Source of the DNA: Escherichia coli
GTDB lineage: Bacteria; Pseudomonadota; Gammaproteobacteria; Enterobacterales; Enterobacteriaceae
Assembly: GCF_044324875.1 (NCBI RefSeq)
Contig: NZ_CP172185.1
Length of the DNA stretch: 64,000 bases
Reading direction: 5' to 3' (one strand)
Part shown: positions 2,664 to 63,616 of the stretch, in pieces
Numbering within the stretch: position 1 is the first letter of the stretch
Layout of the letters: each line of letters opens with the position of its first letter
Notes under the pieces: model-generated
The model's input: only the letters and a program-made list of their open reading frames with translations
Told to the model about the DNA's origin: nothing
The model's database searches: none
Translations under genes and position numbers: made by a program

Positions 2664-3896
2664 TTATGCGACGGGGTCTATTTCCCAGCCAGTGCGGCAA
2701 TCAGTAAAGAGGCCTTGCGGGCAGCGTCCTAATGTCACCCGCGTTGCCTGCTGCCAGTTAGCGAAATCAGTAATCGCCTGACGTAACCCTTTTTGCAGCG
2801 TTGTCGTTGGTTTAATGCCTTCCTGTAACCACAGAGAGATAACTTCAAGGATGCCTGTCTGGCGATGCATTTTGGCATCCATTCGCCCAACTAATTGCCC
2901 ACGATGTAATAACGGCAGAACAAAATAGCCATACTGGCGTTTCGGCGCTGGGGTATAGCACTCCAGCCGGTAGCTAAAATCAAAAAGCTGCTCTGCGCGT
3001 TTACGATCCCAGACAACAGGATCAAAAGGCGAAAGTACCGCGCTGTGCGTTGCAGTGAGCTTTCCGGCCAGCGCACGCTCGAGTAGCGGCAGCAAATCAG
3101 CATGCAGCCAAATATTGCCCAATTTTTCAACATGCACAGCAATGATTTGCCGCTGTTCAGCCCTCGCTTCGCGCCACGCTGCCAGTGCCGGACGTTTCAG
3201 CCGATAGTAATCTGCCAGCCACTGTTCGCGGAATATTCCCAGGCTACGCGCACTGTTATCCAGCATGATGATTTCTGCTTCTGTTTGCGAAACGAGATCG
3301 CGCTCATCATCCCAGTCAGGCATGACACGGTAGGTTAAATCATAAACGCGCTGGAAGTTGCGCCGTTCAATCACCATCACTTTCCCGGCAGTAAATAAAC
3401 CTTCCAGATGCCGTTTATGCGGCTTCCATTCCCACCAGCCGCTTGCACCTTTACGAGGATGCTCAAAATCGGCTGAACGTACCGGCCCCTTATCATGAAT
3501 ATGCTGAATTAACTGTGCAATTTCCGCCTCATGTTCCTGCATCCAGGCGTCATTGTATTTCCAGCCCATTTTTTCAGGTGCCAGCATGCGGTGGCGAATA
3601 AGACGAAAGTCGCTACGCGGCATAAAGCAGGCTTCATGCGCCCAGTATTCCATTAATTCGCCACGCGCCAGAGACTCATCCAGCCACTGGGCAGGATAAT
3701 TTCCCAGACGACTGAAAAGCACCAGATATGGACTACGGGCAACAATATTAATGGTATCGATTTGCAGCAAGGACATGCGGGAGATCGTTGCCGGAATATC
3801 CTCCAACGATGCTCGACGGCGGGGTTTGTTTAACAGGCCTTGCGCGGCGAGGTGAAGATTACGCGCATCAGCAAGAGAGAGGTGCGGCAGCGACAT
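2664..3896 (-). CDS. ycaQ: Winged-helix DNA-binding protein YcaQ (410 aa)
   Basis: 410-aa ORF in conserved position between lpxK and ycaR. Confidence 0.9.
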   Translation of the reverse strand: MSLPHLSLADARNLHLAAQGLLNKPRRRASLEDIPATISRMSLLQIDTINIVARSPYLVLFSRLGNYPAQWLDESLARGELMEYWAHEACFMPRSDFRLIRHRMLAPEKMGWKYNDAWMQEHEAEIAQLIQHIHDKGPVRSADFEHPRKGASGWWEWKPHKRHLEGLFTAGKVMVIERRNFQRVYDLTYRVMPDWDDERDLVSQTEAEIIMLDNSARSLGIFREQWLADYYRLKRPALAAWREARAEQRQIIAVHVEKLGNIWLHADLLPLLERALAGKLTATHSAVLSPFDPVVWDRKRAEQLFDFSYRLECYTPAPKRQYGYFVLPLLHRGQLVGRMDAKMHRQTGILEVISLWLQEGIKPTTTLQKGLRQAITDFANWQQATRVTLGRCPQGLFTDCRTGWEIDPVA

Positions 3897-3932
3897 TCAT
3901 GACTCCATCAATCGAACGCTGCCGCGGCGTAA

Positions 3933-4919
3933 CTAGTTGCCAGAAGCCAGCGAGGTTAGTTGCGCAAGCAGTTTCGCTGGTTCATCACCTGAAAGCTGTG
4001 CGTCTACAGGCAAATACCACCAATTTTCTTCTGCAAAGGCCCGGCATTTCACCGCATCTTTTTCAGTCATTACCAGCGTTTGCCCGGCGTTTACCAACGC
4101 GCTGACATCCGCATGGTTCAAAGACTGATGATCGGCCAGCGGTACACATTTTTCCGGTTGTACGCCGCACATCTTCAGCGTGGCAAAAAAGCGCGGCGGA
4201 TGTCCAATCCCCGCCATCGCCACTACATGTTCAAGCTGAGCAACGTCACAACGCGTACCGGTACGTAAATTCACCGCCTGACCCGGCAGCAGATGCATGG
4301 GGATTTCACCGCTGCGGGGGACACCGCCGTTGACGATTACCGCATCAACCGACTTTAAGCGCCCCGCTCGCTCACGCATTGGCCCCGCCGGCAACCACCA
4401 ACCATTGCCAAAGCGACGCACACCATCAATAACGACAATTTCCACATCACGCGCCAGACGGTAATGCTGTAAACCGTCGTCGGTTACGATGATCTGCACA
4501 TCAGGGTGTTGCGCCAGAATGGCTTTTACCGCATCAGAACGCACGGGAGAAACCGCAACGGGCGCGCCAGTGCGTTGATAAATCAACACAGGTTCATCAC
4601 CCGCCTGTGCTGTGGTGGTATCTGCCGACAATAACAGCGGATAAGATTCAGCCTTACCACCATATCCCCGCGATACGACCCCCACGCGAATACCGCGCTG
4701 TTGCAGCTGTTCCACCAGCCAGATAACGACCGGGGTTTTTCCGTTGCCGCCTGCGGTGAGATTACCAACCACGACAACCGGTACGGGGGCACGCCAGGCG
4801 CGCTTCAGTTTTAGTTTATAGCAAAGACGGATCGCGCCACTCACCAGGCCATACAACCAGGAGAGTGGCAGCAATAGCCGCCACAAAGGGGATTCACCAG
4901 ACCAGATTTTTTCGATCAT
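3933..4919 (-). CDS. lpxK: Tetraacyldisaccharide 4'-kinase
   Basis: 328-aa ORF with P-loop [14 protein letters not shown]; overlaps msbA stop. Confidence 0.96.
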
Positions 4920-6664
4920 TGACCAAACTGCATTTTGTGAAGTTGCGCGTAAACGCCACGGTGCTCAAGCAAATCGTTATGCGTACCGCGTTCCACAATG
5001 ACACCATCCTCGACGACCACGATTTCGTCTGCCTTTTCAATGGTAGACAAGCGGTGGGCAATCACCAGAGAGGTACGGTTTTTCTGCAACTCATCCAGTG
5101 CCGCCTGAATCGCACGTTCGGATTCGGTATCCAACGCCGAGGTAGCTTCGTCCAGAATCAGAATCGGGCTATCACGCAACAAGGCTCGAGCGATGGCAAT
5201 ACGCTGACGCTGACCGCCAGAGAGCAGCACGCCGTTTTCACCAATCACTGTATCGAGACCGTTATCCATCTTATTGATGAAGTCCATGGCGTAGGCCATA
5301 CGCGCCGCTTCTTCAATTTGCTCACGGCTGTACTGTTCAGTCCGTGCGTAAGCAATGTTGTTGGCAACCGTATCGTTAAACAGATGGACATTCTGCGACA
5401 CCAGAGCAACCTGGTTACGTAACGACGCCAGGGTATACTCGCGCAGATCGTGACCATCCATCAGGATTTCGCCTTCATCAATATCGTAAAAACGTGTGAT
5501 TAGGCTGGCGATGGTTGATTTACCTGAACCAGAGCGTCCAACCAGAGCAACCGTCTTCCCTGCCGGAATTTTCAGGTTGATGTTACGCAATGCGGGCACG
5601 TCACGTCCCGGATAAGTAAAGGTGACATTGCGGAATTCCACGTCGCCAGTCGCACGCTCGATCACGCGCTTACCTTCGTCTTTCTCCTGCTCACTGTCCA
5701 GAATGGTAAACAGCGTCTGACAAGCCGCCATACCGCGCTGGAACTGGGCGTTAACGTTGGTCAGCGATTTCAGCGGACGCATCAGTGCAATCATTGAAGA
5801 GAAAACAACGGTAATCGTACCGGCAGTCAGGCTATCCATGACACTTGGGAAGCTCGCCGCATACAGAACAAACGCCAGCGCCAAAGAGGCGATCAGCTGA
5901 ATGATCGGATCAGAGATGGAAGAGGCTGAAACCATTTTCATCCCCTGAAGACGCATTCGGTTACTGACTTTATCGAAGCGTTTCGTTTCCACTTCCTGAC
6001 CACCGAAAATCAATACTTCTTTGTGGCCCTTCAGCATTTGTTCTGCGCTGGTGGTCACCTGCCCCATGGTGTTCTGCATGTTTTTACTGATGTTACGAAA
6101 ACGCTTCGATACAACGCGAATCGCAATCGAAACAATCGGTGCCAGCACAATCAAAATGATCGACAGTTGCCAGCTGTAATAGAACATCATGATGAACAGG
6201 CCGATGATCGACGCACCTTCACGCACAACAGTAATCAGTGCGCCGGAAGAAGAAGAAGCAACCTGTTCGGAATCGTAGGTGATACGTGACAACAGCGTAC
6301 CCGTTGACTGTTTGTCAAAAAATGAAACAGGCATTCCCATCATGTGACCAAACAGGCGGCGACGCATGGTCATTACCACCTTTCCTGATACCCAGGAGAT
6401 ACAGTAGCTGGAGACATAGCTGGTGATACCACGTAAAATCATCAGCCCGATCACCACCAGCGGCATCCACACCAGCACGGAGCGATCTGTTTTACCAAAG
6501 CCATCATCAAGAAGTGGCTTAAGGAGCGATAACATGAAGGTATCGCTGGCTGCGTTGAGGATTAACGCTACGCCCGCCACGATCAGACCCGCTTTAAAAG
6601 GCGCAATGGTTGGCCACAGTCGGCGGAACGTCTGCCACGTAGAGAGATCTTTGTCGTTATGCAT
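4916..6664 (-). CDS. msbA: Lipid A/LPS ABC exporter (flippase) MsbA
   Basis: 582-aa ORF with TM domain plus ABC ATPase motifs ([17 protein letters not shown]). Confidence 0.97.
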
Positions 6665-40681: not shown

Positions 40682-40761
40682 ATGAACAGGAAACAGAAGC
40701 AGGAACTGAAAGGCTTCTTACGTAAAGAAATTGCCAGGCTGGAAGATGTGGAATCTCAGTC
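40682..40761 (+). pseudogene. 5' fragment of small phage gene interrupted by IS21-family element
   Basis: MNRKQKQELKGFLRKEIARLEDVESQS... continues in frame at 43407 once the IS and one copy of the target duplication are removed. Confidence 0.8.
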
Positions 40762-40860
40762 TGCGTATTCCGCTCTATTCGATCACGGATTGGCATCGAA
40801 GTCCGATCAGCGATTCGCATCCATTCGATCAACCGGGAACTTAACTTTTTCTACCGCTTT

Positions 40861-41616
40861 TTAACGCGTTTTTTCGCTGCTTTCCACTACCGGGGGATTT
40901 TTCCTCAGTGACTCTCCCTGAAGGACCACTCGGTGTGAGTTATGTACCAGTCTGTCCAGGATGGCATCTGCTGTTGTTGGGTTCTCCATCAGACCATGCC
41001 ATTTATCTACCGGGAACTGGCTTACCACTATCGTGCTGCTTTGTCCGTAACGATCCTCTATGAGCTCCAGAAGGTCATTACACTGGGCGTTACTTAACTG
41101 TTCCAGCCCCAGATCGTCCAGGATTAGAACCTGTATTTTTTGCAACTGTTTCAGATATTTCAGCCAGCTGCCATCAACACGTCCCTGAGCCAGTTGTTCC
41201 AGTAATCGCCCGGTTCTACAGTACCGGACGCTGTGTTTCTGTCGACATGCCTGTTCGCCCAGCGCATTGGCTATCCAGCTCTTGCCACATCCTGTCGGAC
41301 CGGTTATCAGCAGGTTTTTCCTGTGGGTTATGTAGTGGCCGTTCAGCAGTTCTCTCATCTGTTCAGCCCGCAGACCTCTTGAGGCCGGATAGCGCAGCCC
41401 TTCCGGTGTTGCCTGGTATTTCAGGCCGGCATTTTTTCTCAACCGTGCCACACGGCTGTTTTCCCTGCTCAGAAGCTCGTCATCAACCAGCAGCGTCAGC
41501 CTTTCCTCGAACGACAGTTCGTCGTAGGTCTGAGGCGTTTCCCGCTGCCGTATCAGGCTCCCGGCCATCGCCGGGAGTTTCAGTTGGGTCAGTTTGTTTA
41601 ACAGGTTATCACTCAT
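40861..41616 (-). CDS. istB: IS21-family helper ATPase IstB
   Basis: Start MSDNLLNKL; Walker A GPTGCGKS; 251 aa. Confidence 0.93.
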   Translation of the reverse strand: MSDNLLNKLTQLKLPAMAGSLIRQRETPQTYDELSFEERLTLLVDDELLSRENSRVARLRKNAGLKYQATPEGLRYPASRGLRAEQMRELLNGHYITHRKNLLITGPTGCGKSWIANALGEQACRQKHSVRYCRTGRLLEQLAQGRVDGSWLKYLKQLQKIQVLILDDLGLEQLSNAQCNDLLELIEDRYGQSSTIVVSQFPVDKWHGLMENPTTADAILDRLVHNSHRVVLQGESLRKNPPVVESSEKTR

Positions 41617-41632
41617 ACTGTTGTTCCTTCTG

Positions 41633-43168
41633 TCAGTGGTAGTAGCCCGGACCACGCAGGTTTTCATGCTCTGAAGCATATGCCGGATGTTGTTCGCCCT
41701 GGCGGGATAATGGAAGCTCCAGGTTCTCCCGATGGTGACGCAGCAGATTGTCGATAAAGCGTCTGTCAGGGGCGTTATAGTGCAGGGCAACGTAACAGGC
41801 CTTTTCCAGCCGTTCCGGGCCGTATTTTTTCTGAAGTGCCAGCAGCCCCAGAACTGCACGATAAGCCAGTTCCGGATGGGGTTTTGCCTTCAGCATGGAT
41901 TCAACCACCCGGCCTGTGGACGGGCCCGTACGTTTTCCCTGCTCGATCAGGCGTTCCGGTGTCCATGTCCCGTGCTGCCGGTGGCGCTCTGGCATGTGAA
42001 GCGGATTGGTTGTGTGTTTATATTCATGTGTGCTGCGCGGATGTTGCGCCACACACTGCCCCTTGTGCCAGAGCTGTACCACCGACTGCCCCGCCTTCAG
42101 TGACAGACGCTGACCGACCAGTTCGTGTGGAACGGAGTACCAGTGACGGGCATATTCAACGTGGTAGTCAGGGCCAACCTTCACAGCTTTGTATTCCGTG
42201 TATTCATAAGGTGCCAGAGGCAGCGGAGAGAGTGCTGGCGCATCCAGTATGCGGAAGCGTTCTGCACGGGTTTGATTGCCGTACCCCTTCATTGGCCGGT
42301 TATTCATGTCTGTCAGTAACTCCCTAAGGCGCGCATTCAGCGCCCTGAGCGTGTGGAAGGTTTCATTACGGATGCGGGCAAGAAGCCATCGTTCAACGAT
42401 GAGGACGCCGTTTTCTGCTTTTGGTTTATCTTTAGGTTTGCGTGGTCGGGCCGGGATGATAACCGTGCCATAGTGCTCAGCCAGTGCCTGATAACTGTCG
42501 TTGATGACAGGCTCATATCGATCGGCCTTTTTCACTGCGCTTCTGAGGTTATCGGGGATGAGCAGCTTCGGTACGCCGCCCAGGAAGGTCAGGCAACGGC
42601 TGTGGGCATTTAACCATGACATCATGTCCTGACCTTCGCACGCTTCAACGTAGGTATAGTTGGACGCCCCCATTACGGCCACGAAGATTGCCACGCGGCG
42701 TATCTCACCGGTGTCCGGATTAATAACAGGAACCGTAGGACCACAGAAGTCGATAAAAAGCTTTTCGCCGGCACGATGCTCCTGGCGCATGGAGAGACGT
42801 CGCGTTTTTTTCCACTCCCGGTAGCAACGGCAGAAGTGCGAGTATCCCATCGCTTTGTTACCCGCCTGTGCCTTGTATTCCATCCACAACAGTTGCCGCG
42901 TCACACCTGGTTTTCTCATTTCCGTATCGAAGTACAACATGTCAGGCATTACAAGCTCTGATGCAAAGGTGTCTTTGGGCGGAAAAATGAGTTTCTCCAG
43001 CGTGTCATGGGATATATCAGCAGGTAATGGCCATGACAGAGAAGAGGCTTTGAAGCGGGCAAGAACCTCAAAAACGGTTGAGGCGCTGATGTGTAACGTC
43101 AGTCCGATACAACGGTTAGTCAGCTTCTTGTCGAACTTGAGCTGAAGGATCTTAAAACAGGTTTCCAT
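41633..43168 (-). CDS. istA: IS21-family transposase IstA
   Basis: Start METCFKILQ with AGGAG SD; DDE integrase core region; 511 aa. Confidence 0.92.
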   Translation of the reverse strand: METCFKILQLKFDKKLTNRCIGLTLHISASTVFEVLARFKASSLSWPLPADISHDTLEKLIFPPKDTFASELVMPDMLYFDTEMRKPGVTRQLLWMEYKAQAGNKAMGYSHFCRCYREWKKTRRLSMRQEHRAGEKLFIDFCGPTVPVINPDTGEIRRVAIFVAVMGASNYTYVEACEGQDMMSWLNAHSRCLTFLGGVPKLLIPDNLRSAVKKADRYEPVINDSYQALAEHYGTVIIPARPRKPKDKPKAENGVLIVERWLLARIRNETFHTLRALNARLRELLTDMNNRPMKGYGNQTRAERFRILDAPALSPLPLAPYEYTEYKAVKVGPDYHVEYARHWYSVPHELVGQRLSLKAGQSVVQLWHKGQCVAQHPRSTHEYKHTTNPLHMPERHRQHGTWTPERLIEQGKRTGPSTGRVVESMLKAKPHPELAYRAVLGLLALQKKYGPERLEKACYVALHYNAPDRRFIDNLLRHHRENLELPLSRQGEQHPAYASEHENLRGPGYYH

Positions 43169-43406
43169 AGTGCTCCTGGATTTTCTCTTTCTGGACATTG
43201 ACGTCTCCACTGGTTTAAACACGGCAATGGAGACTGTGGTGAAAAGAGTTAATTCCCGGAGTGACTGGCAGGATGCCAATCAATGATCGGAAGCATGCCA
43301 AATCGTGATCGATTGTGATGCCAAACTGTGATCGGAGATGGATGCCAAATCATGATCGATTCGAATGCCAAACTGCGATCGATTCAGATGCCATTTTGCA
43401 TCAGTC

Positions 43407-56738: not shown

Positions 56739-58973
56739 ATGAGCACGAGAAAATTCAGAACCCTTATCACCGACATCGGGCTGGCAAAGCTGGCCGCAAC
56801 AACGGCGCCTGGCGGTAGACCTGTACGCCTTACGCACATGGCTGTAGGGGACGGCAATGGAGAGCTTCGTCAGCCGCAGAAAAACCAGACATCGCTTTAC
56901 AATGAGGTTTGGCGCCAGTCTGTCAACCGCGTCTTCACCGACCCGGAGAACCCGAACCGCCTCATCGCCGAACTGGTCATTCCTCCTGAAACCGGCGGAT
57001 TCTGGGTGCGTGAAATTGGTGTGTTTGATGATACAGGTACAATGATTGCAGTAGGAAATACCGCTGAAAGTTACAAGCCCACCAGAGAGGAAGGTTCAGG
57101 GCGGGCGCAGATATTCCGTGCAGTAATCACCGTCACCTCCGACGCCGTGGTGGAACTGGTCATGGACACAACAACAATTCTGCCGACCACGGACTACATT
57201 GATGAGAAAATGGCGGAACACGCACGTTCCCGTAACCACCCTGACGCGACACTGACAGAAAAAGGATTCACCCAACTGAGCAGCGCCACAAACAGCACCT
57301 CTGAAACACTGGCCGCCACACCGAAGGCCGTCAAGGCTGCATATGACCTTGCAGCCGGTAAAGCACCCGCCAGCCACACCCACCCGTGGAATCAGATAAC
57401 TGGTGTGCCATCAGCCTCGCTGACGGCAAAAGGCACCGTACAGCTGAGCAGTGCCACAAACAGTGAGTCAGAGACTGAGGCGGCCACCCCCAAAGCGGTT
57501 AAAGCCTTACACGATATGGTGACGAGCAAGTATACAGGACAGGATGCAACCACCGGACGCAAAGGCATCGTACAGCTGAGCAGCGCCACAAACAGCAATT
57601 CCGAAACACTGGCGGCCACACCGAAGGCAGTAAGTGATGCACTGAGCATGGCGTTCGTGAAGCCAACAACATCCCTGGGGGAAACAGACCTGAACACTCT
57701 GGGGCGTAAGGAAGACGCGGGAGATTATTACCAGCAGAGTGACTCAGGTGCGAGAACAGACAGAAACTATCCTGTAGAGAAGGCAGGAGAGTTACGCATC
57801 CGTGTTGGTGCATGGGGATTCTGCCAGCATGAATACACGAGCTGGGATCCGCCACGAAAATTTATCAGGACAGTTACCGGAAACTTTAACGGTAACGGCC
57901 CATGGTCAGAGTGGGTGGAGGTGACAAACACAGATGCAACAACTGGACGCAAAGGCATCGTACAGCTGAGCAGCGATACAAACAGCAATTCCGAAACGCT
58001 GGCGGCCACACCAAGAGCCGTCAAGGCTGCATATGACCTTGCAGCCGGTAAAGCACCCGCCAGCCACACCCACCCGTGGAATCAGATAACAGGTGTGCCA
58101 TCAGCCTCGCTGACGGCAAAAGGCACCGTACAGCTGAGCAGTGCCACAAACAGTGAGTCAGAGACTGAGGCCGCCACCCCCAAAGCGGTTAAAGCCTTAC
58201 ACGATATGCTGACGAGCAAGTATACAGGACAGGATGCAACCACCGGACGCAAAGGCATCGTACAGCTAAGCAGCGCCACAAACAGCAATTCCGAAACGCT
58301 GGCGGCCACACCAAAAGCTGTTAAAGCTGCGTATGACCTTGCCAACAGCAAAGCCTCGGCAGCCCACACTCATCGCTGGGCTCAGATCACAGACGCCCCT
58401 GTTTTTTCGTCTGTTGCCCGCGTCATCATGGGTAAACAAAGCATAAAAGATATTCTTGATTACTTTGGTTTAGGAGAAGGCTCGACGCTGCCAGTTGGCG
58501 TACCCGTTCCGTGGCCTTCGTCAAGACCACCTGAGGGGTGGTTACAGTGCAACGGTGCCGCATTCACGCGTACAAAATACCCAAAACTGGCGGTGGCCTA
58601 CCCTGACCTCAGGCTACCAGATTTGCGCGGGGAATTTATTCGTGGATGGGATGACCTGCGAATGATTGACAGGGGACGCTTATTGTTATCCACACAGGAA
58701 GCAACATATATTTGTACCGCCATACAGGCGTACCACGGCGTAGCGGGAGGTGCAGATATTCAGGCAGGGATTTCATTTGCATCACATGATAACGACATCA
58801 TAAACATAACCCCTGATCAACCCAGAACCGGTAACGGCATCCTGTACGGCACAAAACCAGTTGACAGATGGGCAATAGCCAGAGCCGGTAAGCTGGTGAG
58901 TAATGAAAAAGACAGATGGATAGCGATCAGACCGCGCAATATCGCTTTTAATTATATTGTGAGGGCAGTTTAA
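56739..58973 (+). CDS. Tail fibre protein (P2 gpH-like) with internal repeat array
   Basis: 744 aa; repeated TGRKGIVQLSSATNSNSETLAATPKAVKAAYDLA units; C-terminal receptor-binding region. Confidence 0.9.
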   Translation: MSTRKFRTLITDIGLAKLAATTAPGGRPVRLTHMAVGDGNGELRQPQKNQTSLYNEVWRQSVNRVFTDPENPNRLIAELVIPPETGGFWVREIGVFDDTGTMIAVGNTAESYKPTREEGSGRAQIFRAVITVTSDAVVELVMDTTTILPTTDYIDEKMAEHARSRNHPDATLTEKGFTQLSSATNSTSETLAATPKAVKAAYDLAAGKAPASHTHPWNQITGVPSASLTAKGTVQLSSATNSESETEAATPKAVKALHDMVTSKYTGQDATTGRKGIVQLSSATNSNSETLAATPKAVSDALSMAFVKPTTSLGETDLNTLGRKEDAGDYYQQSDSGARTDRNYPVEKAGELRIRVGAWGFCQHEYTSWDPPRKFIRTVTGNFNGNGPWSEWVEVTNTDATTGRKGIVQLSSDTNSNSETLAATPRAVKAAYDLAAGKAPASHTHPWNQITGVPSASLTAKGTVQLSSATNSESETEAATPKAVKALHDMLTSKYTGQDATTGRKGIVQLSSATNSNSETLAATPKAVKAAYDLANSKASAAHTHRWAQITDAPVFSSVARVIMGKQSIKDILDYFGLGEGSTLPVGVPVPWPSSRPPEGWLQCNGAAFTRTKYPKLAVAYPDLRLPDLRGEFIRGWDDLRMIDRGRLLLSTQEATYICTAIQAYHGVAGGADIQAGISFASHDNDIINITPDQPRTGNGILYGTKPVDRWAIARAGKLVSNEKDRWIAIRPRNIAFNYIVRAV
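57328..57625 (+). repeat. Copy 1 of ~300-bp near-identical direct repeat inside tail-fibre gene
   Basis: Near-identical to 58018-58315 (offset 690 bp) with five single-base differences noted in the aligned core. Confidence 0.8.
58018..58315 (+). repeat. Copy 2 of ~300-bp direct repeat inside tail-fibre gene
   Basis: See copy 1. Confidence 0.8.
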
Positions 58974-59584
58974 TGAGTAACACTGCAGTTCTGGATGAAA
59001 ACGGTATCGCCACTTTCGCAGGCGATATCACTGTATATCACTATGATGAGGAAACCCGGGAATACACCTCATCCTCTGTGGAGTATCTCGCCCTGGGGGT
59101 GGGTACCCCGGCACATTCATGCGCCGATGCCCCGCCAGAGGCAATGCCGGGTTACGTGATTTGCCGGACGTCCACGCTGGACGGGTGGGAGTATGTCCCC
59201 GATCATCGTGGAGAGACGGTATACAGCACAGAGAACGGTAATCCGGTCCAGATTACCCAACCAGGTGACTACCCGGAAGGGACAACGACAAAACAGCCTG
59301 CCACACCATGGGATACCTGGAACGGTGAGGCGTGGGTAACCGATACAGAACGGCAGCAAGCCGAAGAGCTGGAGGTTGCCAGACAGCAACGCAAGGAACG
59401 GGTGGATCAGGCGATGAAGTCCATCGACCTCATCAACCTTAAGTTGCGGGCAGGTCGCAGTCTGACACCAGAAGAAACGGCAAAACTGAATGCCGTGCTG
59501 GATTATATCGACGAGCTGAACGCACTGGATATCAGCACGGAGCCTGAAATAAGCTGGCCGGAAACACCACCAGAAATGGAATGA
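58973..59584 (+). CDS. Tail fibre assembly chaperone (P2 gpG-like)
   Basis: 203 aa; start overlaps H stop. Confidence 0.87.
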   Translation: MSNTAVLDENGIATFAGDITVYHYDEETREYTSSSVEYLALGVGTPAHSCADAPPEAMPGYVICRTSTLDGWEYVPDHRGETVYSTENGNPVQITQPGDYPEGTTTKQPATPWDTWNGEAWVTDTERQQAEELEVARQQRKERVDQAMKSIDLINLKLRAGRSLTPEETAKLNAVLDYIDELNALDISTEPEISWPETPPEME

Positions 59585-60154: not shown

Positions 60155-63100
60155 CTAATCTCTGTCACGGAAACTACCGACTGTCTGGCGGATACGGCGT
60201 TCCATTTCCGCACGGACGGCATCACCCACCATTTTTGCCAGTTCGCGCGGGTTTTGCGTGTGAACATCATGCAGGTGAATATGCAGTTCGCCAGTTAATC
60301 CCCATGGTGCCGGCTCACTCTGGCGCGGTCGGGGCGATGCGGGGGATATGGGCTGGCGCACAGCCTCAACCACCGGACGGGATGTTGCCGCCATCACTGG
60401 TGTCATTAGCGGGGAGAACGTCGGCATGACATCGTGAGTCATAACCGGTTTGATCACCGGCGGAACCACTGGCGTAATATTACCGGACAGTACCGGACGG
60501 ACGACCGGAGGAATAACCGGCACATTATTCACGGACACCACCGGCTTCACGACCGGCGACACGTTCGCCGTGGTGGATATCAGCGGCGAAACACTGACAG
60601 GCGGTGGCGCTGGCAGCGGTGGCAACGAAGGCACACTGACCGACGGCACCTGCGGCAGTCTGACAGGTGGCTCACTGACACTACCCGGTAACAGGGAAGC
60701 TGCTCGGTTAAAGCGTTCCTCCTTCCACTCACCACGAACGGCCAGCGCTTCCGGCAGGTTTTTAAAGATAATATCGCCGGGACCAGCGCGTTTTTTCGCC
60801 TGTTTCGCCTCATCCAGCAGACCACCGGTGTTATCGACGATTTTGTTCAGGCGGCGCATAGTGCCGGTATTCTCCCCCGTCAGGGGTGGTTGCCCCCCTT
60901 TGGGTTTTTCGCCGTCTTTTTTATCCTCGTCCTTTTTCGGCGGATTAATGACGTTAACATCCGCCAGAAGCATGGCAGCTTTCTCGTTCAGCAACTCCTT
61001 CTGTTTTAGTTCTTCCGCCTTTTTCCGGGCGCGCTCAACCGCCGACGGAATCAGCCCGAGTTTTTCCAGCACCCGGGTTAATGAGTCAATCAGCAGCGTA
61101 ACCGGACCGGTCACCAGATTGCTGATAAACTCCCCTACCTTCTGCCCGAACGTACGCCCGGCTTCCGTGCACTTGTCCAGCTCATCCTTTGTTGTGCTTA
61201 CCGGCGCGAACAAATCCACGAACCACTGCCACACACGCCCGATTGTCTGCCCGACATACTCAAACAGCGGTCCCAGTGGTGCCACAGCCTCGCGCAGTGG
61301 CGTAAGCCCCTGCCACAGGCCGGACAAGAACCCGCCCACGACAGCCTTCAGCTGGTCCCAGTGCCGCCAGATAAGCACTGCCGCACCGACCAGTGTCGCC
61401 ACCACAAGGCCCACCGGACTTAACAGAAAACCCAGCGCCCCGCCAAGTGCGCCCACCGCACCACTCACCATCCCCCACAGTGCGGGCAGACCTGACAGTC
61501 TGAGCGCCAGTATTCCGATACCGCGCCCCAGTGAAATCAGTGCGCCGCCAGGTGAAGTGAACGCAGCCAGCAGACCACCACGCAGCGCGCCAAGTCCCGC
61601 CTGCACACCACGAAGCCGCCCCGCAACTACGCCCAGCAGTGCAGCAAACCGTCCGGCACCGGAGGTGATACCGACAAACAGCACGCGCCAGCCACCGATA
61701 CCGCCCAGCGGACCACCGAGTACGCCGCGCAGCTGCGTCAGTAACGGCAGCGCACGACCGAGGCCGGATGTGCCGGTCAGCAGGGCAAACCCAAGACGCA
61801 GTTTTGCCAGCGGCCCCATCAACACACCAGTGGCAAGTGACAGCGCCCCCATGGCCGCAACCGCAGCCAGCAGTACACCACCGGCAATCAGCAGTTGTTT
61901 TGTCAGTTCAGGGTGCGCCTGAGCCAGCGCGGTGACTTTCGCAATAACCCGGGTGAACGACTGCGTGACAGAACGCAGCGGCCCGTCAACGAGGTCAGCG
62001 ACACGGATACGCAGTCCTTCCCATGCGCTGTTCAGTGATTTCAGGTCACCGTCCAGGTTATCAGCCATAACACGGGCAGTGTGATTAAGTTCCCCGGTGG
62101 CCAGTTCAATCTCCTGCGTAAGACGGGGAAGATTATTTTCCCCCGCCGCAGTGACAAGATTCATCAGGGAAACATAGGACTCCTGCCCGGCAATAGCCCT
62201 GAAAAAGGAGACCTGCGCGGCATTACCGTATTTTCGGGTGGCCTGGTACAGCTCATTCAGGATATTTTCCATCCGGCGCATGTTCCCGTAAGCATCCTGC
62301 GTCTCCACGCCAAGCTCTTTCAGTGCCATTGCAGCGGCCTTCGGCGGATCAACCAGACGTGACAGACTGGCACGCAGCGCCGTACCTGCATCACTTCCAC
62401 GGATCCCCACACTGCCAAGGACACCCGTCATGGCTGCCGCCTGTTCAAGGGACAGGCCAAGTGAAGCTGCAACCGGACCCGTGTACTTCATGGTTTCACC
62501 CAGTGAACGGAGATCCGTATTGGTTCGTGTGAAGGTGGCGGCCAGCGTGTCACCCACGCGATCCATCTGGTCAGCGGACAGACCAAACTGTGTGAGGATA
62601 TTCGAACTGATATCGGCAGTCTGTCCCAGGTCCATCCCTGCAGCCATTGCCAGATCAAGCACGCCGGGTAGCGCCGCCTGTATGGCCTGTGGTGTGAAGC
62701 CGGCCATGGCAAGGAACGCCTGACCGCTGGCAGCATCACCGGCGGTAAACTGCGTTTCAGAGCCCAGCTTAATGGCCTGTTCGCGCAGCGCCTTAAACTG
62801 CGGACTGTTTTTGTCAATACGGGTCAGCGCCTGGACGCGTGACATCTCCTTACCAAAACTGACCGCCGGTTGCAGGAAACGTCCGGCCGCATAGCCGCCT
62901 GCCGCCGCCGTACCAACCGCCGTAAGTCCGACCGTTTTAAGTTTTCCCGCCGTCTCCTGAGCACGGGAATATTGCTGGCGTGCCTGCGTGACACGTGCCA
63001 GCGCCTGCCGTTCGCGTTCCAGCTGGTCGTTGTATTGCTGTGTTCGCCGTATGGCCTGTTGAATGGTGTTGTCACTGCCGGAAAGCGCAATACCGTGGCG

Positions 63101-63466
63101 CCGCAGCTCACCACCCAGTTCGCGCATTCGCTGAACTTCACGCGCACGGACCTCATTGAGACGCTCAAGTTTGAGGCTCAAATCGTTCATCAGCTTTTTC
63201 TGTTTGTCAGACAGCACGGTTCCGGCGCGCTGAATTTGCTGAAGTGCGCTTAACTGGCGTTGTGCCCGGGCAATGCCGTTTCCGGCCTTGTTTGCAGCCT
63301 CGCGGGCGCGATCAAATGAACGGGCGTGGCGTTCCAGGTTTTTGATCGCACCCTGCGTTCTCTGTATGGAGTCGCCAAGCTGGCCCATCATGCGACGGGC
63401 GTTTTCGGTGGGACGGGTCAGCCTGTCAACAGCGCTGAAGGCGACCCGTATATCAAGCGTTTTCAT
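60155..63466 (-). CDS. Tail tape measure protein (P2 gpT-like), with C-terminal Pro/Val-rich repeats
   Basis: About 1100 aa; start set at ATG (MKTLDIRV) that overlaps the stop of the predicted E' frameshift extension; upstream GTG alternative at 63502. Confidence 0.88.
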   Translation of the reverse strand: MKTLDIRVAFSAVDRLTRPTENARRMMGQLGDSIQRTQGAIKNLERHARSFDRAREAANKAGNGIARAQRQLSALQQIQRAGTVLSDKQKKLMNDLSLKLERLNEVRAREVQRMRELGGELRRHGIALSGSDNTIQQAIRRTQQYNDQLERERQALARVTQARQQYSRAQETAGKLKTVGLTAVGTAAAGGYAAGRFLQPAVSFGKEMSRVQALTRIDKNSPQFKALREQAIKLGSETQFTAGDAASGQAFLAMAGFTPQAIQAALPGVLDLAMAAGMDLGQTADISSNILTQFGLSADQMDRVGDTLAATFTRTNTDLRSLGETMKYTGPVAASLGLSLEQAAAMTGVLGSVGIRGSDAGTALRASLSRLVDPPKAAAMALKELGVETQDAYGNMRRMENILNELYQATRKYGNAAQVSFFRAIAGQESYVSLMNLVTAAGENNLPRLTQEIELATGELNHTARVMADNLDGDLKSLNSAWEGLRIRVADLVDGPLRSVTQSFTRVIAKVTALAQAHPELTKQLLIAGGVLLAAVAAMGALSLATGVLMGPLAKLRLGFALLTGTSGLGRALPLLTQLRGVLGGPLGGIGGWRVLFVGITSGAGRFAALLGVVAGRLRGVQAGLGALRGGLLAAFTSPGGALISLGRGIGILALRLSGLPALWGMVSGAVGALGGALGFLLSPVGLVVATLVGAAVLIWRHWDQLKAVVGGFLSGLWQGLTPLREAVAPLGPLFEYVGQTIGRVWQWFVDLFAPVSTTKDELDKCTEAGRTFGQKVGEFISNLVTGPVTLLIDSLTRVLEKLGLIPSAVERARKKAEELKQKELLNEKAAMLLADVNVINPPKKDEDKKDGEKPKGGQPPLTGENTGTMRRLNKIVDNTGGLLDEAKQAKKRAGPGDIIFKNLPEALAVRGEWKEERFNRAASLLPGSVSEPPVRLPQVPSVSVPSLPPLPAPPPVSVSPLISTTANVSPVVKPVVSVNNVPVIPPVVRPVLSGNITPVVPPVIKPVMTHDVMPTFSPLMTPVMAATSRPVVEAVRQPISPASPRPRQSEPAPWGLTGELHIHLHDVHTQNPRELAKMVGDAVRAEMERRIRQTVGSFRDRD

Positions 63467-63616
63467 GCTCTGCGTTCCCGCTGCGAAGGGCCGCCCGCTC
63501 ACGCCAGGCGACCACCTCGCCGGGATCCATCAGGAAGATTTCAGCGGGAGACCAGTTGAAAATAACGGCGATATCCGCCACAAAGTCTTCAATATGCTCA
63601 AAGGGCACGACGGTTA

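Follow-up and report, generated by a model that had tools for sequence, protein, structure and literature searches.

The question raised by this locus is how a phage tail-fibre gene came to carry the same stretch of about 300 bp twice, and what such a repeat would mean for the fibre. The window (the whole 64,000-nucleotide stretch of Escherichia coli DNA that was analysed) holds a P2-family prophage, integrated between dmsA and serS, with a gpH-type fibre gene and, directly behind it, a chaperone gene:

56739..58973, plus strand: tail-fibre gene of the P2 gpH type, 744 aa (ORF, Pfam, PGAP, P2 match)
58973..59584, plus strand: tail-fibre assembly chaperone gene, 203 aa (Pfam Caudo_TAP, E 4.5e-27; PGAP 'tail fiber assembly protein')

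Our answer, which we hold to be very probable, is that the repeat is an in-frame segmental duplication in the shaft-coding part of the gene, and that it arose and has been rearranged by recombination between repeat cores.

A sequence-only reading had called this gene H, and domain content and gene order agree. In the 744-aa product Pfam detects Phage_tail_fib (PF12571) at residues 4-151 (E 6.1e-50, 169.5 bits against a cut-off of 23), six stretches of the Phage_fiber_2 repeat (PF03406; E 1e-104, 342 bits against a cut-off of 22) and Collar (PF07484; E 3e-13). As judged by Pfam and PGAP labels, the neighbouring genes run in the P2-type order V-W-J-I-H-chaperone, and PGAP annotates P2-family capsid, portal, terminase, ogr and cox genes in the same prophage. 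In tblastn the Peduovirus P2 fibre and the window fibre are 68.3% identical over query positions 1-541 (53% of the query covered, E 3e-98). Together, the N-terminal domain, the gene order and the similarity to P2 gpH support membership in the P2 gpH type. The gene is no newcomer to annotation: hundreds of E. coli assemblies already list its product as a tail-fibre protein, and PGAP labels all 22 identical copies discussed below 'tail fiber protein'. An NCBIfam scan of the fibre returned one irrelevant match, below threshold, and megablast of the gene against a phage collection gave merely two weak partial matches, which indicates that this prophage type is absent from the deposited phages.

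The fibre is built from a baseplate-attachment N-domain, six Phage_fiber_2 repeats, the third and fourth of them separated by a knob, and a Collar/tip domain. Module parsing thus bears out the repeated fibre units that had been proposed, and resolves them as follows:

56739..57254, plus strand: N-terminal baseplate-attachment domain, aa 1-172 (Pfam PF12571)
57255..57422, plus strand: repeat unit 1, type L, 56 aa, HxH motif SHTHPW (unit parsing; Phage_fiber_2 stretch 171-210)
57423..57554, plus strand: repeat unit 2, type S, 44 aa, Val allele (unit parsing)
57555..57944, plus strand: repeat unit 3, type K, 130 aa, repeat core followed by the knob (profile, AF2, Foldseek)
57945..58112, plus strand: repeat unit 4, type L with HxH (unit parsing)
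58113..58244, plus strand: repeat unit 5, type S, Leu allele (unit parsing)
58245..58412, plus strand: repeat unit 6, terminal and L-like, AHTHRW, leading into the C-terminal region (unit parsing)
58413..58970, plus strand: C-terminal receptor-binding region (Collar PF07484, T4 gp37 match)

Each module has a conserved core of ~20 residues, QLSSATNSxSETLAATPKAV, and behind it a linker of one of three kinds: long (L, a 56-aa period with HxH), short (S, 44 aa) or knob-bearing (K, 130 aa). Written in this way, the window allele reads N-L-S-K-L-S-T-C. At the C-terminal end, the Collar domain occupies aa 587-634 (window 58497-58640) and the T4 gp37 tip structure 2XGF matches the C-terminal region (E 3.5e-12).

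The knob itself, at about aa 299-403 (window 57633-57947), follows the repeat core within unit 3, and no Pfam model matches this region. A profile of 34 homologues (A1) used with hmmsearch recovered the R2 and R1 pyocin fibres (6CT8, E 7e-11; 6CL6, E 7.9e-11; 6CL5, E 1.4e-6). The AF2 model of the knob has six strands at pLDDT 90, and the best PDB matches that Foldseek finds for it are again 6CL6 and 6CL5 (probability 1.00, TM 0.53-0.65, E just ~1e-2). Profile and predicted model both point to a homologue of the R-pyocin fibre knob, with a predicted antiparallel beta-sheet fold; from the chain offset, its pyocin counterpart would be Knob2, at about residues 445-530.

The duplication lies on either side of this knob:

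57327..57625, plus strand: duplication copy 1, covering the unit 1 linker, the whole of unit 2 and the unit 3 core (alignment)
58017..58315, plus strand: duplication copy 2, covering the unit 4 linker, the whole of unit 5 and the unit 6 core (alignment)

The two blocks are identical at 292 of 298 positions (98.0%) at an in-frame offset of 690 bp, so the near-identical direct duplication described from the sequence stands, and the blocks are not substantially diverged. The count of differences rises from five to six, with the last of them 3 nt away from the block end: 57401 T/A, 57482 G/C, 57519 G/C, 57578 G/A, 57608 A/G and 57623 G/A. Five of the six are synonymous, the remaining one exchanging Val and Leu, and the nucleotide identity therefore reflects common descent rather than convergence. 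Upstream, weaker homology continues through 57261-57326 (50/66 identical), giving 94% over the whole of 57261-57625; beyond the homologous stretch, identity at offset 690 drops to ~30%. In modular terms one long (56 aa) and one short (44 aa) module are duplicated, and it is this L+S pair flanking the knob on both sides that yields a 298-bp repeat of 98% identity at offset 690. Shorter similarity is also seen at offsets 300 and 390, since the six Phage_fiber_2 repeats have a common core. Tandem Repeats Finder reported no repeat in the gene because its longest period is 500 and the period here is 690.

Exact repeats in the gene reach 80 nt, whereas none exceeded 18 nt in 100 codon-shuffled controls, and the uninterrupted identical runs inside the 298-bp block measure 80, 74, 58 and 36 bp. 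The minimal processing segment for RecA in E. coli is ~25-50 bp. Judged by identity and length, the duplication thus qualifies as a recombination-prone direct repeat, that is, a candidate RecA substrate.

To see how the fibre varies among related prophages, we drew on complete genomes and on public protein clusters and compared fibres that are near-identical over the first 172 aa and the last 242 aa. The 120 best clusters contain at least ten module orders: LSKLST (the window allele), LSKLLT, LLSKLT, LLSKLST, LSKLSLT, LLSKLLT, LLSLKLT, LSKLLLT, LSKLSLLT and LSLLT. Four of them are represented among complete genomes: LSKLST by 22 records, LLSKLLT by 2, and LLSKLT and LSLLT by 1 each. The comparison of fibre lengths that the sequence-only reading had proposed accordingly gives a range of 626-856 aa with differing module strings, and its suggestion of a substrate for expansion and contraction of the shaft finds comparative support in this allelic series. 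The N-domain is 99.2-99.8% identical across all relatives, including CS5L, in which shaft and tip differ.

The S units are shared between prophages in a telling way. The S unit of copy 1 (GG, Val) agrees with the one S unit of SCU-115 (L003) at 99.2% identity, as against 98.5% with its sister copy; the S unit of copy 2 (CC, Leu) matches the allele of Br_112_kylling, CM2 and 23CRST011, with 99.2% identity to the one S unit of L001, whose variant bases are shared by L002 and L004. The S alleles of both window copies therefore exist singly in other prophages. As each S copy is closer to another prophage's S than to its sister, recombination among repeat cores appears to reshuffle the shaft. Long repeats of their own are carried by P0004 (392 bp at offset 690) and by CM2 and 23CRST011 (~310 bp at offset 858). 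CS5L combines an N-domain of 99.6% identity with ten units and an unrelated tip, and its three S units are 100% identical to one another and merely 75% identical to the window's S; we read it as an independent amplification in another allele.

The sequences show how the modules are arranged, which strings occur among related alleles and how S alleles are shared between prophages; from this we infer the following mechanism. Unequal homologous recombination between similar repeat cores would create and rearrange module strings, with exchange partners that may be two parts of a single gene or else related prophages or phages sharing a cell. The offsets of 300, 390 and 690 bp are all multiples of three, so every exchange would be in frame, and the product would be a fibre with whole modules gained, lost or reordered. 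As a consequence, fibres would differ in how long the shaft is, in how many putative metal sites it has and in whether and where it bears a knob, with the baseplate-binding N-domain and the receptor-binding tip staying constant. Modular fibre repeats reshuffled by homologous recombination are textbook fibre evolution, and fibre variation of this kind is ordinary, well understood and already known, although a search of the literature on repeat mosaicism in P2-like fibres turned up no specific account. On short time scales the duplication is stable, as the gene is unchanged in 22 complete-genome records: the identical 2235-bp gene comes from several countries and hosts, although 8 of the 22 records are of equal size (5,067,659 bp) and probably represent one strain.

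The strongest competing explanation is a simpler history, in which a single recent tandem duplication of the 690-bp L-S-K block occurred in situ, after which the second knob was lost and point mutations arose, with no exchange between alleles. The offset does equal exactly L+S+K (168+132+390 = 690), identity is high and both bounds fall at the end of a repeat core. However, this history takes two steps, duplication and then knob loss, and it fits poorly with the occurrence of both S alleles singly elsewhere at 99.2% identity, as against 98.5% to the sister. Furthermore, the copies differ from each other by 2.0%, whereas the N- and C-parts differ by 0.2-1.2% among alleles, that is, the copies are more diverged than the flanks of the gene. 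We consider such an origin possible, with about one chance in four of being correct.

Unlikely, and less probable than this history, is a toggle that works without a dedicated recombinase: frequent RecA-mediated loss of 690 bp, with rarer regain, would keep populations mixed for 744-aa knob-bearing and 514-aa knob-less fibres. If true, this would imply stochastic heterogeneity in host range and adsorption, a form of bet-hedging, and the 514-aa contigs would be real variants rather than assembly collapses. The 690-bp deletion is in frame and takes out whole modules, and both exact predicted 514-aa products, the Leu and the Val form, are present in public assemblies (8 and 3 contigs, respectively); in nine contigs that we examined there are six junction SNP patterns, with a clean single switch in six of the nine. 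The 514-aa contigs come, however, solely from short-read metagenome or MAG assemblies, and the other three of the nine show patchy multi-switch patterns typical of a collapsed-repeat consensus. For both reasons we rejected these contigs as proof of contraction. The expected 3455-bp span is seen in 0 of 26 complete genomes, and no dedicated recombinase is annotated in near-identical prophage copies. In the opposite direction, an exact look-up of the predicted triplication products (974 aa) in the collection returned none. As short-read metagenome assemblies can produce a collapsed 514-aa gene, repeat-bearing fibres should be treated cautiously in surveys of fibre length or receptor-binding proteins.

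A diversity-generating retroelement (DGR), with one copy as template repeat and the other as variable repeat, is extremely improbable; the sequence-only reading had called it unlikely. While two near-identical repeats of DGR-compatible size do lie in a phage tail-fibre gene, PGAP annotates no reverse transcriptase in near-identical prophage copies and their flanks in other strains; this is also the sense in which the earlier statement that none is nearby holds. Nor are the substitutions adenine-specific, again as first noted: the mismatches listed above place adenine on either side, and five of the six are synonymous third-position changes. Both copies are, moreover, located mid-gene, in frame and in the shaft, not in a C-terminal variable domain. 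An invertible fibre segment of the Gin/Cin/Min type was also considered and set aside: no invertase is annotated in the near-identical copies, and inverted repeats in the region are weak (70-78%) and scattered, none significantly flanking the segment. That an assembler falsely created the duplication is likewise extremely improbable, given the identical gene in 22 complete-genome records and the exact 744-aa protein on 444 contigs.

With recombination between repeat cores as the preferred reading, the locus can be set against known systems. P2 gpH, with its chaperone gpG, is alike in the N-terminal Phage_tail_fib domain, in the place after gpI and before the chaperone, and in having Phage_fiber_2 repeats after the N-domain; it is unlike in that the match covers about half of the query and leaves the knob insertion, the Collar tip and the C-terminal third of the window fibre uncovered. 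The prophages differ as well, the sheath-tube-tape-measure-gpU block being on the opposite strand in the window prophage. Lambda Stf and E. coli prophage fibres (StfR, EHEC collagen-like) carry the same Pf2 (PF03406) repeat, which is common to these fibres with variable domain lengths (PMC3368898). Lambda Stf-type fibres attach by another N-domain, PfN (PF08400), and in them Pf2 stands alongside collagen or coiled-coil segments (PMC3368898), whereas six Pf2 units form most of the window shaft.

The R1/R2 pyocin fibres of Pseudomonas aeruginosa (PA0620; 6CL6, 6CL5, 6CT8) share the homologous knob, and HxH motifs similar to their shaft iron site recur in the window L units as putative metal sites. 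In pyocin fibres the knobs form a tandem pair and the tip is lectin-like, whereas the window fibre has one knob among Pf2 repeats and a Collar/T4 gp37-like tip. R-pyocin knobs are said to stem from duplicated genes and to have a part in recognising surfaces, and fibre architecture is known for its repeats and gene duplications (PMC6116203). Finally, the invertible segments of Mu and P1 and the DGR of Bordetella phage BPP-1 are likewise ways to vary a tail fibre. In these, a programmed invertase (Gin/Cin) or reverse transcriptase acts on the receptor-binding end; in the window gene the variation is in the shaft, and near-identical copies of the prophage have neither enzyme in their annotation. 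Residues 498-556, in the unit-6 region, match structures of Mu fibre protein S (5YVQ and 8JU3, E 1.5e-7).

The locus matters little beyond being a clean example of shaft-module variation. The allelic series does, with the same attachment domain and tip on shafts giving fibres of 626-856 aa and the knob present, absent or shifted, constitute a natural panel for the role of shaft length and an internal knob in adsorption.

Two open reading frames run antisense to the duplicated stretch:

57392..57697, minus strand: antisense ORF, 101 aa, probably non-coding, paralogue of the ORF at 58082-58369 (ORF list; without PGAP annotation)
58082..58369, minus strand: antisense ORF, 95 aa, probably non-coding, duplication-made copy of 57392-57697 (ORF list; without PGAP annotation)

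The antisense and sense frames have a common wobble position, and the substitutions change one amino acid in either frame. The substitution pattern therefore cannot show that these ORFs are spurious, and we dropped the six differences, uninformative in this respect, as proof of it. The duplication had been offered as the explanation of the spurious antisense ORFs; it does not account for why they exist, but it does account for their near-identical pairing.

Comparing the window with itself at an offset of 690 bp confirmed a near-identical duplication in the shaft of the tail-fibre gene: 57327-57625 (copy 1) and 58017-58315 (copy 2) are identical at 292 of 298 positions (98.0%). The sequence-only reading had placed the blocks correctly but counted five differences, and there are six (copy 1/copy 2: 57401 T/A, 57482 G/C, 57519 G/C, 57578 G/A, 57608 A/G and 57623 G/A), five of them synonymous third-position changes and the remaining one Val/Leu. 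Upstream of the block, 57261-57326 is 76% identical to its counterpart, and outside the block and this stretch identity at the same offset drops to ~30%. A repeat search of the sequence recovered the same pair plus a four-member family spaced 300, 390 and 300, the offsets 300, 390 and 690 all being divisible by three; exact repeats within the gene reach 80 nt, and none exceeds 18 nt when its codons are shuffled (n=100).

56739-58973, plus strand: tail-fibre ORF, 744 aa, containing both copies
58973-59584: Caudo_TAP fibre-assembly chaperone (Pfam), the next ORF after the fibre gene

Pfam assigns three families to the fibre ORF: a fibre N-domain of the P2 type (PF12571, E 6e-50), Phage_fiber_2 with six repeats (PF03406, E 1e-104) and Collar (PF07484, E 3e-13). 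Over query residues 1-541 (53% of query covered) the protein is ~68% identical to the fibre of Peduovirus P2 itself; further matches are to the T4 gp37 tip (2XGF) in the Collar region and to Mu fibre protein S (5YVQ) at residues 498-556. The gene follows the baseplate genes V, W, J and I, with the gpU, tape-measure, tube and sheath genes on the opposite strand. An identical gene is found in 22 complete-genome E. coli records, eight of these, of equal record length, being probably one strain, and in complete-genome records its P2-family prophage sits between dmsA and serS. The gene is already annotated in public records; in several NCBI and UniRef entries the identical protein (56739-58973) goes by the name 'short-chain fatty acid transporter', which looks like a propagated misannotation.

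Cutting the protein at every QLSS motif yielded six shaft units:

L (long) unit: 56 aa, linker KAAYDLAAGKAPASHTHPWNQITGVPSASL
S (short) unit: 44 aa, linker KALHDM(V/L)TSKYTGQDATT
K (knob-bearing) unit: 130 aa, third in order, followed by L, S and the terminal L-like unit T

The module order is thus N-L-S-K-L-S-T-C, where N is the attachment domain and C the C-terminal region with the tip. The near-identical block consists of precisely an L linker, a single S unit and the core after it, and both its edges fall where a repeat core ends (…TPKAV). Each L-type unit carries one HxH motif (SHTHPW or AHTHRW; 57375-57392, 58065-58082 and 58365-58382). In the R-pyocin shaft and in T4 gp37, motifs of this kind make up axial iron sites (PMC6116203). 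By analogy, the HxH of each L unit may contribute a putative metal site in the trimer and, with one in every L-type unit, the duplication would add one.

Between the copies lies the following feature:

57633-57947 (fibre residues 299-403): predicted pyocin-type knob domain, from profile and fold matches

While these ~100 residues of unit K have no Pfam-A or NCBIfam match in the library copies searched, a full-library search found relatives in 275 representative clusters at E ≤1e-3, often with several copies per protein. A profile (A1) built from 34 of these clusters matches the R2 and R1 pyocin fibres 6CT8, 6CL6 and 6CL5 (E 7e-11 to 1e-6), and the best PDB fold matches of the segment's confident AlphaFold model (pLDDT 90) are again these pyocin fibres (prob 1.00, TM 0.53-0.65). 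Together, profile and modelled fold identify the segment as a pyocin-type knob, most likely corresponding, by chain offset, to Knob2. Pyocin knobs are thought to derive from gene duplication and to help surface recognition (PMC6116203).

Using both shaft flanks combined as the query, we retrieved 26 complete genomes in which both flanks are at least 99.4% identical. Of the 26, 22 share the window's arrangement, with a flank-to-flank span of 4145 bp.

Fibre arrangements in other genomes
SCU-115: LSLLT, 626 aa, span 3791 bp, without knob
CM2 and 23CRST011: LLSKLLT, 812 aa, span 4349 bp
Br_112_kylling: LLSKLT, 756 aa, span 4181 bp
E. coli CS5L (NZ_CP158311.1, fibre gene at locus 3001-5706): ten repeat units

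Among the best 120 protein clusters, we found the orders LSKLST, LSKLLT, LLSKLT, LLSKLST, LSKLSLT, LLSKLLT, LLSLKLT, LSKLLLT and LSKLSLLT, each with a common 172-aa N-terminus and 242-aa C-terminus. Other fibre alleles have their own long repeats, placed at different boundaries. The CS5L fibre is a shaft-plus-tip swap onto a conserved attachment domain: its N-domain is 99.6% identical to the window's, its three S units match one another at 100% identity and the window's at 75%, and neither its C-terminal tip nor its chaperone is related.

The copy-1 S unit shares nucleotide alleles with the single S unit of SCU-115, and the copy-2 S unit with that of Br_112_kylling, CM2 and 23CRST011; each is 99.2% identical to such an outside counterpart and 98.5% to its sister copy. 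Divergence between the copies (2.0% over the block) exceeds that of the gene flanks among alleles (0.2-1.2%). As judged by sequence comparison, this shows whole modules being gained, lost and reordered repeatedly, with exchange between alleles, as recombination among shared cores predicts. Comparing fibre lengths across related prophages, as had been proposed, revealed variation (626-812 aa among the 26 genomes with matching flanks), and the earlier interpretation of the blocks as repeated fibre units and a recombination substrate is supported, with small corrections, by the module comparison. Among phage fibre genes, reshuffling of modular repeats by homologous recombination is a standard feature (PMC3368898 on Pf2 repeats; PMC6116203 on repeats and duplication).

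Exchange between the copies is expected to yield 514-aa proteins through deletion of 690 bp, in a Leu and a Val form, and triplications of 974 aa. An exact-sequence look-up in the public collection found both 514-aa forms and none of the triplications. The 514-aa carrier contigs that we read (eight Leu, three Val) all come from short-read metagenome or MAG assemblies. In six of the nine examined (L009-L017), the six diagnostic sites show a single switch (ACCAGA in three, TGCAGA in two, TCCAGA in one), and in three they show several (TCGAGA, AGGAGA and TCGGGA). These multi-switch patterns, and the absence of the 514-aa form from the 26 complete genomes with matching flanks, suggest that at least part of the contigs arose by repeat collapse; the remainder could be real deletions. 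Given possible collapse, we do not count these contigs as proof of contraction, and they counsel caution for fibre surveys built on such assemblies. The sole less ordinary reading left, frequent switching within populations between fibres with and without the knob, appears quite improbable.

The gene's presence in 22 complete-genome records, and that of the identical protein on 444 contigs, rules out an assembly artefact. An invertible segment was rejected, with no invertase annotated in near-identical prophage copies and no meaningful inverted repeats. A diversity-generating retroelement had already been considered unlikely, and we concur: the mismatches are mostly synonymous and not adenine-specific, both copies lie mid-shaft, and the annotation of near-identical prophage copies and their flanks in other strains contains no reverse transcriptase.

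57392-57697 and 58082-58369, minus strand: antisense ORFs, both left unannotated by PGAP

The duplication had been said to explain these ORFs as spurious. It does account for their being copies of each other; since antisense and sense frames share the wobble position, however, substitutions cannot discriminate coding status, and 'spurious' does not follow.

Elsewhere in the prophage we observed:

40762-43394: IS21-family insertion, 2633 bp, ends TG...CA, flanked by a 6-bp target duplication TCAGTC (40756-40761 and 43395-43400)
41633-43279, minus strand: IstA of this insertion
40861-41859, minus strand: IstB of this insertion
60155-63502, minus strand: intact tape-measure ORF, 1115 aa (1103 aa from other gene callers), with a PhageMin_Tail domain and a Pro/Val-rich C-terminal third

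In strain TUM1886, whose prophage is otherwise 99.7% identical, the insertion is absent and its site falls within a small hypothetical gene that lies downstream of the gene for the replication endonuclease. PGAP flags the TUM1886 tape-measure as 'incomplete, missing C-terminus'; it differs from the window's by substitutions only, with no indel. At the same dmsA-serS site, strain LH10-b-1 carries a prophage remnant (NZ_CP100530.1, 3140196-3158046) without genes for replication, capsid and lysis and with damage to the tape-measure gene; the fibre gene it retains is identical to the window's.
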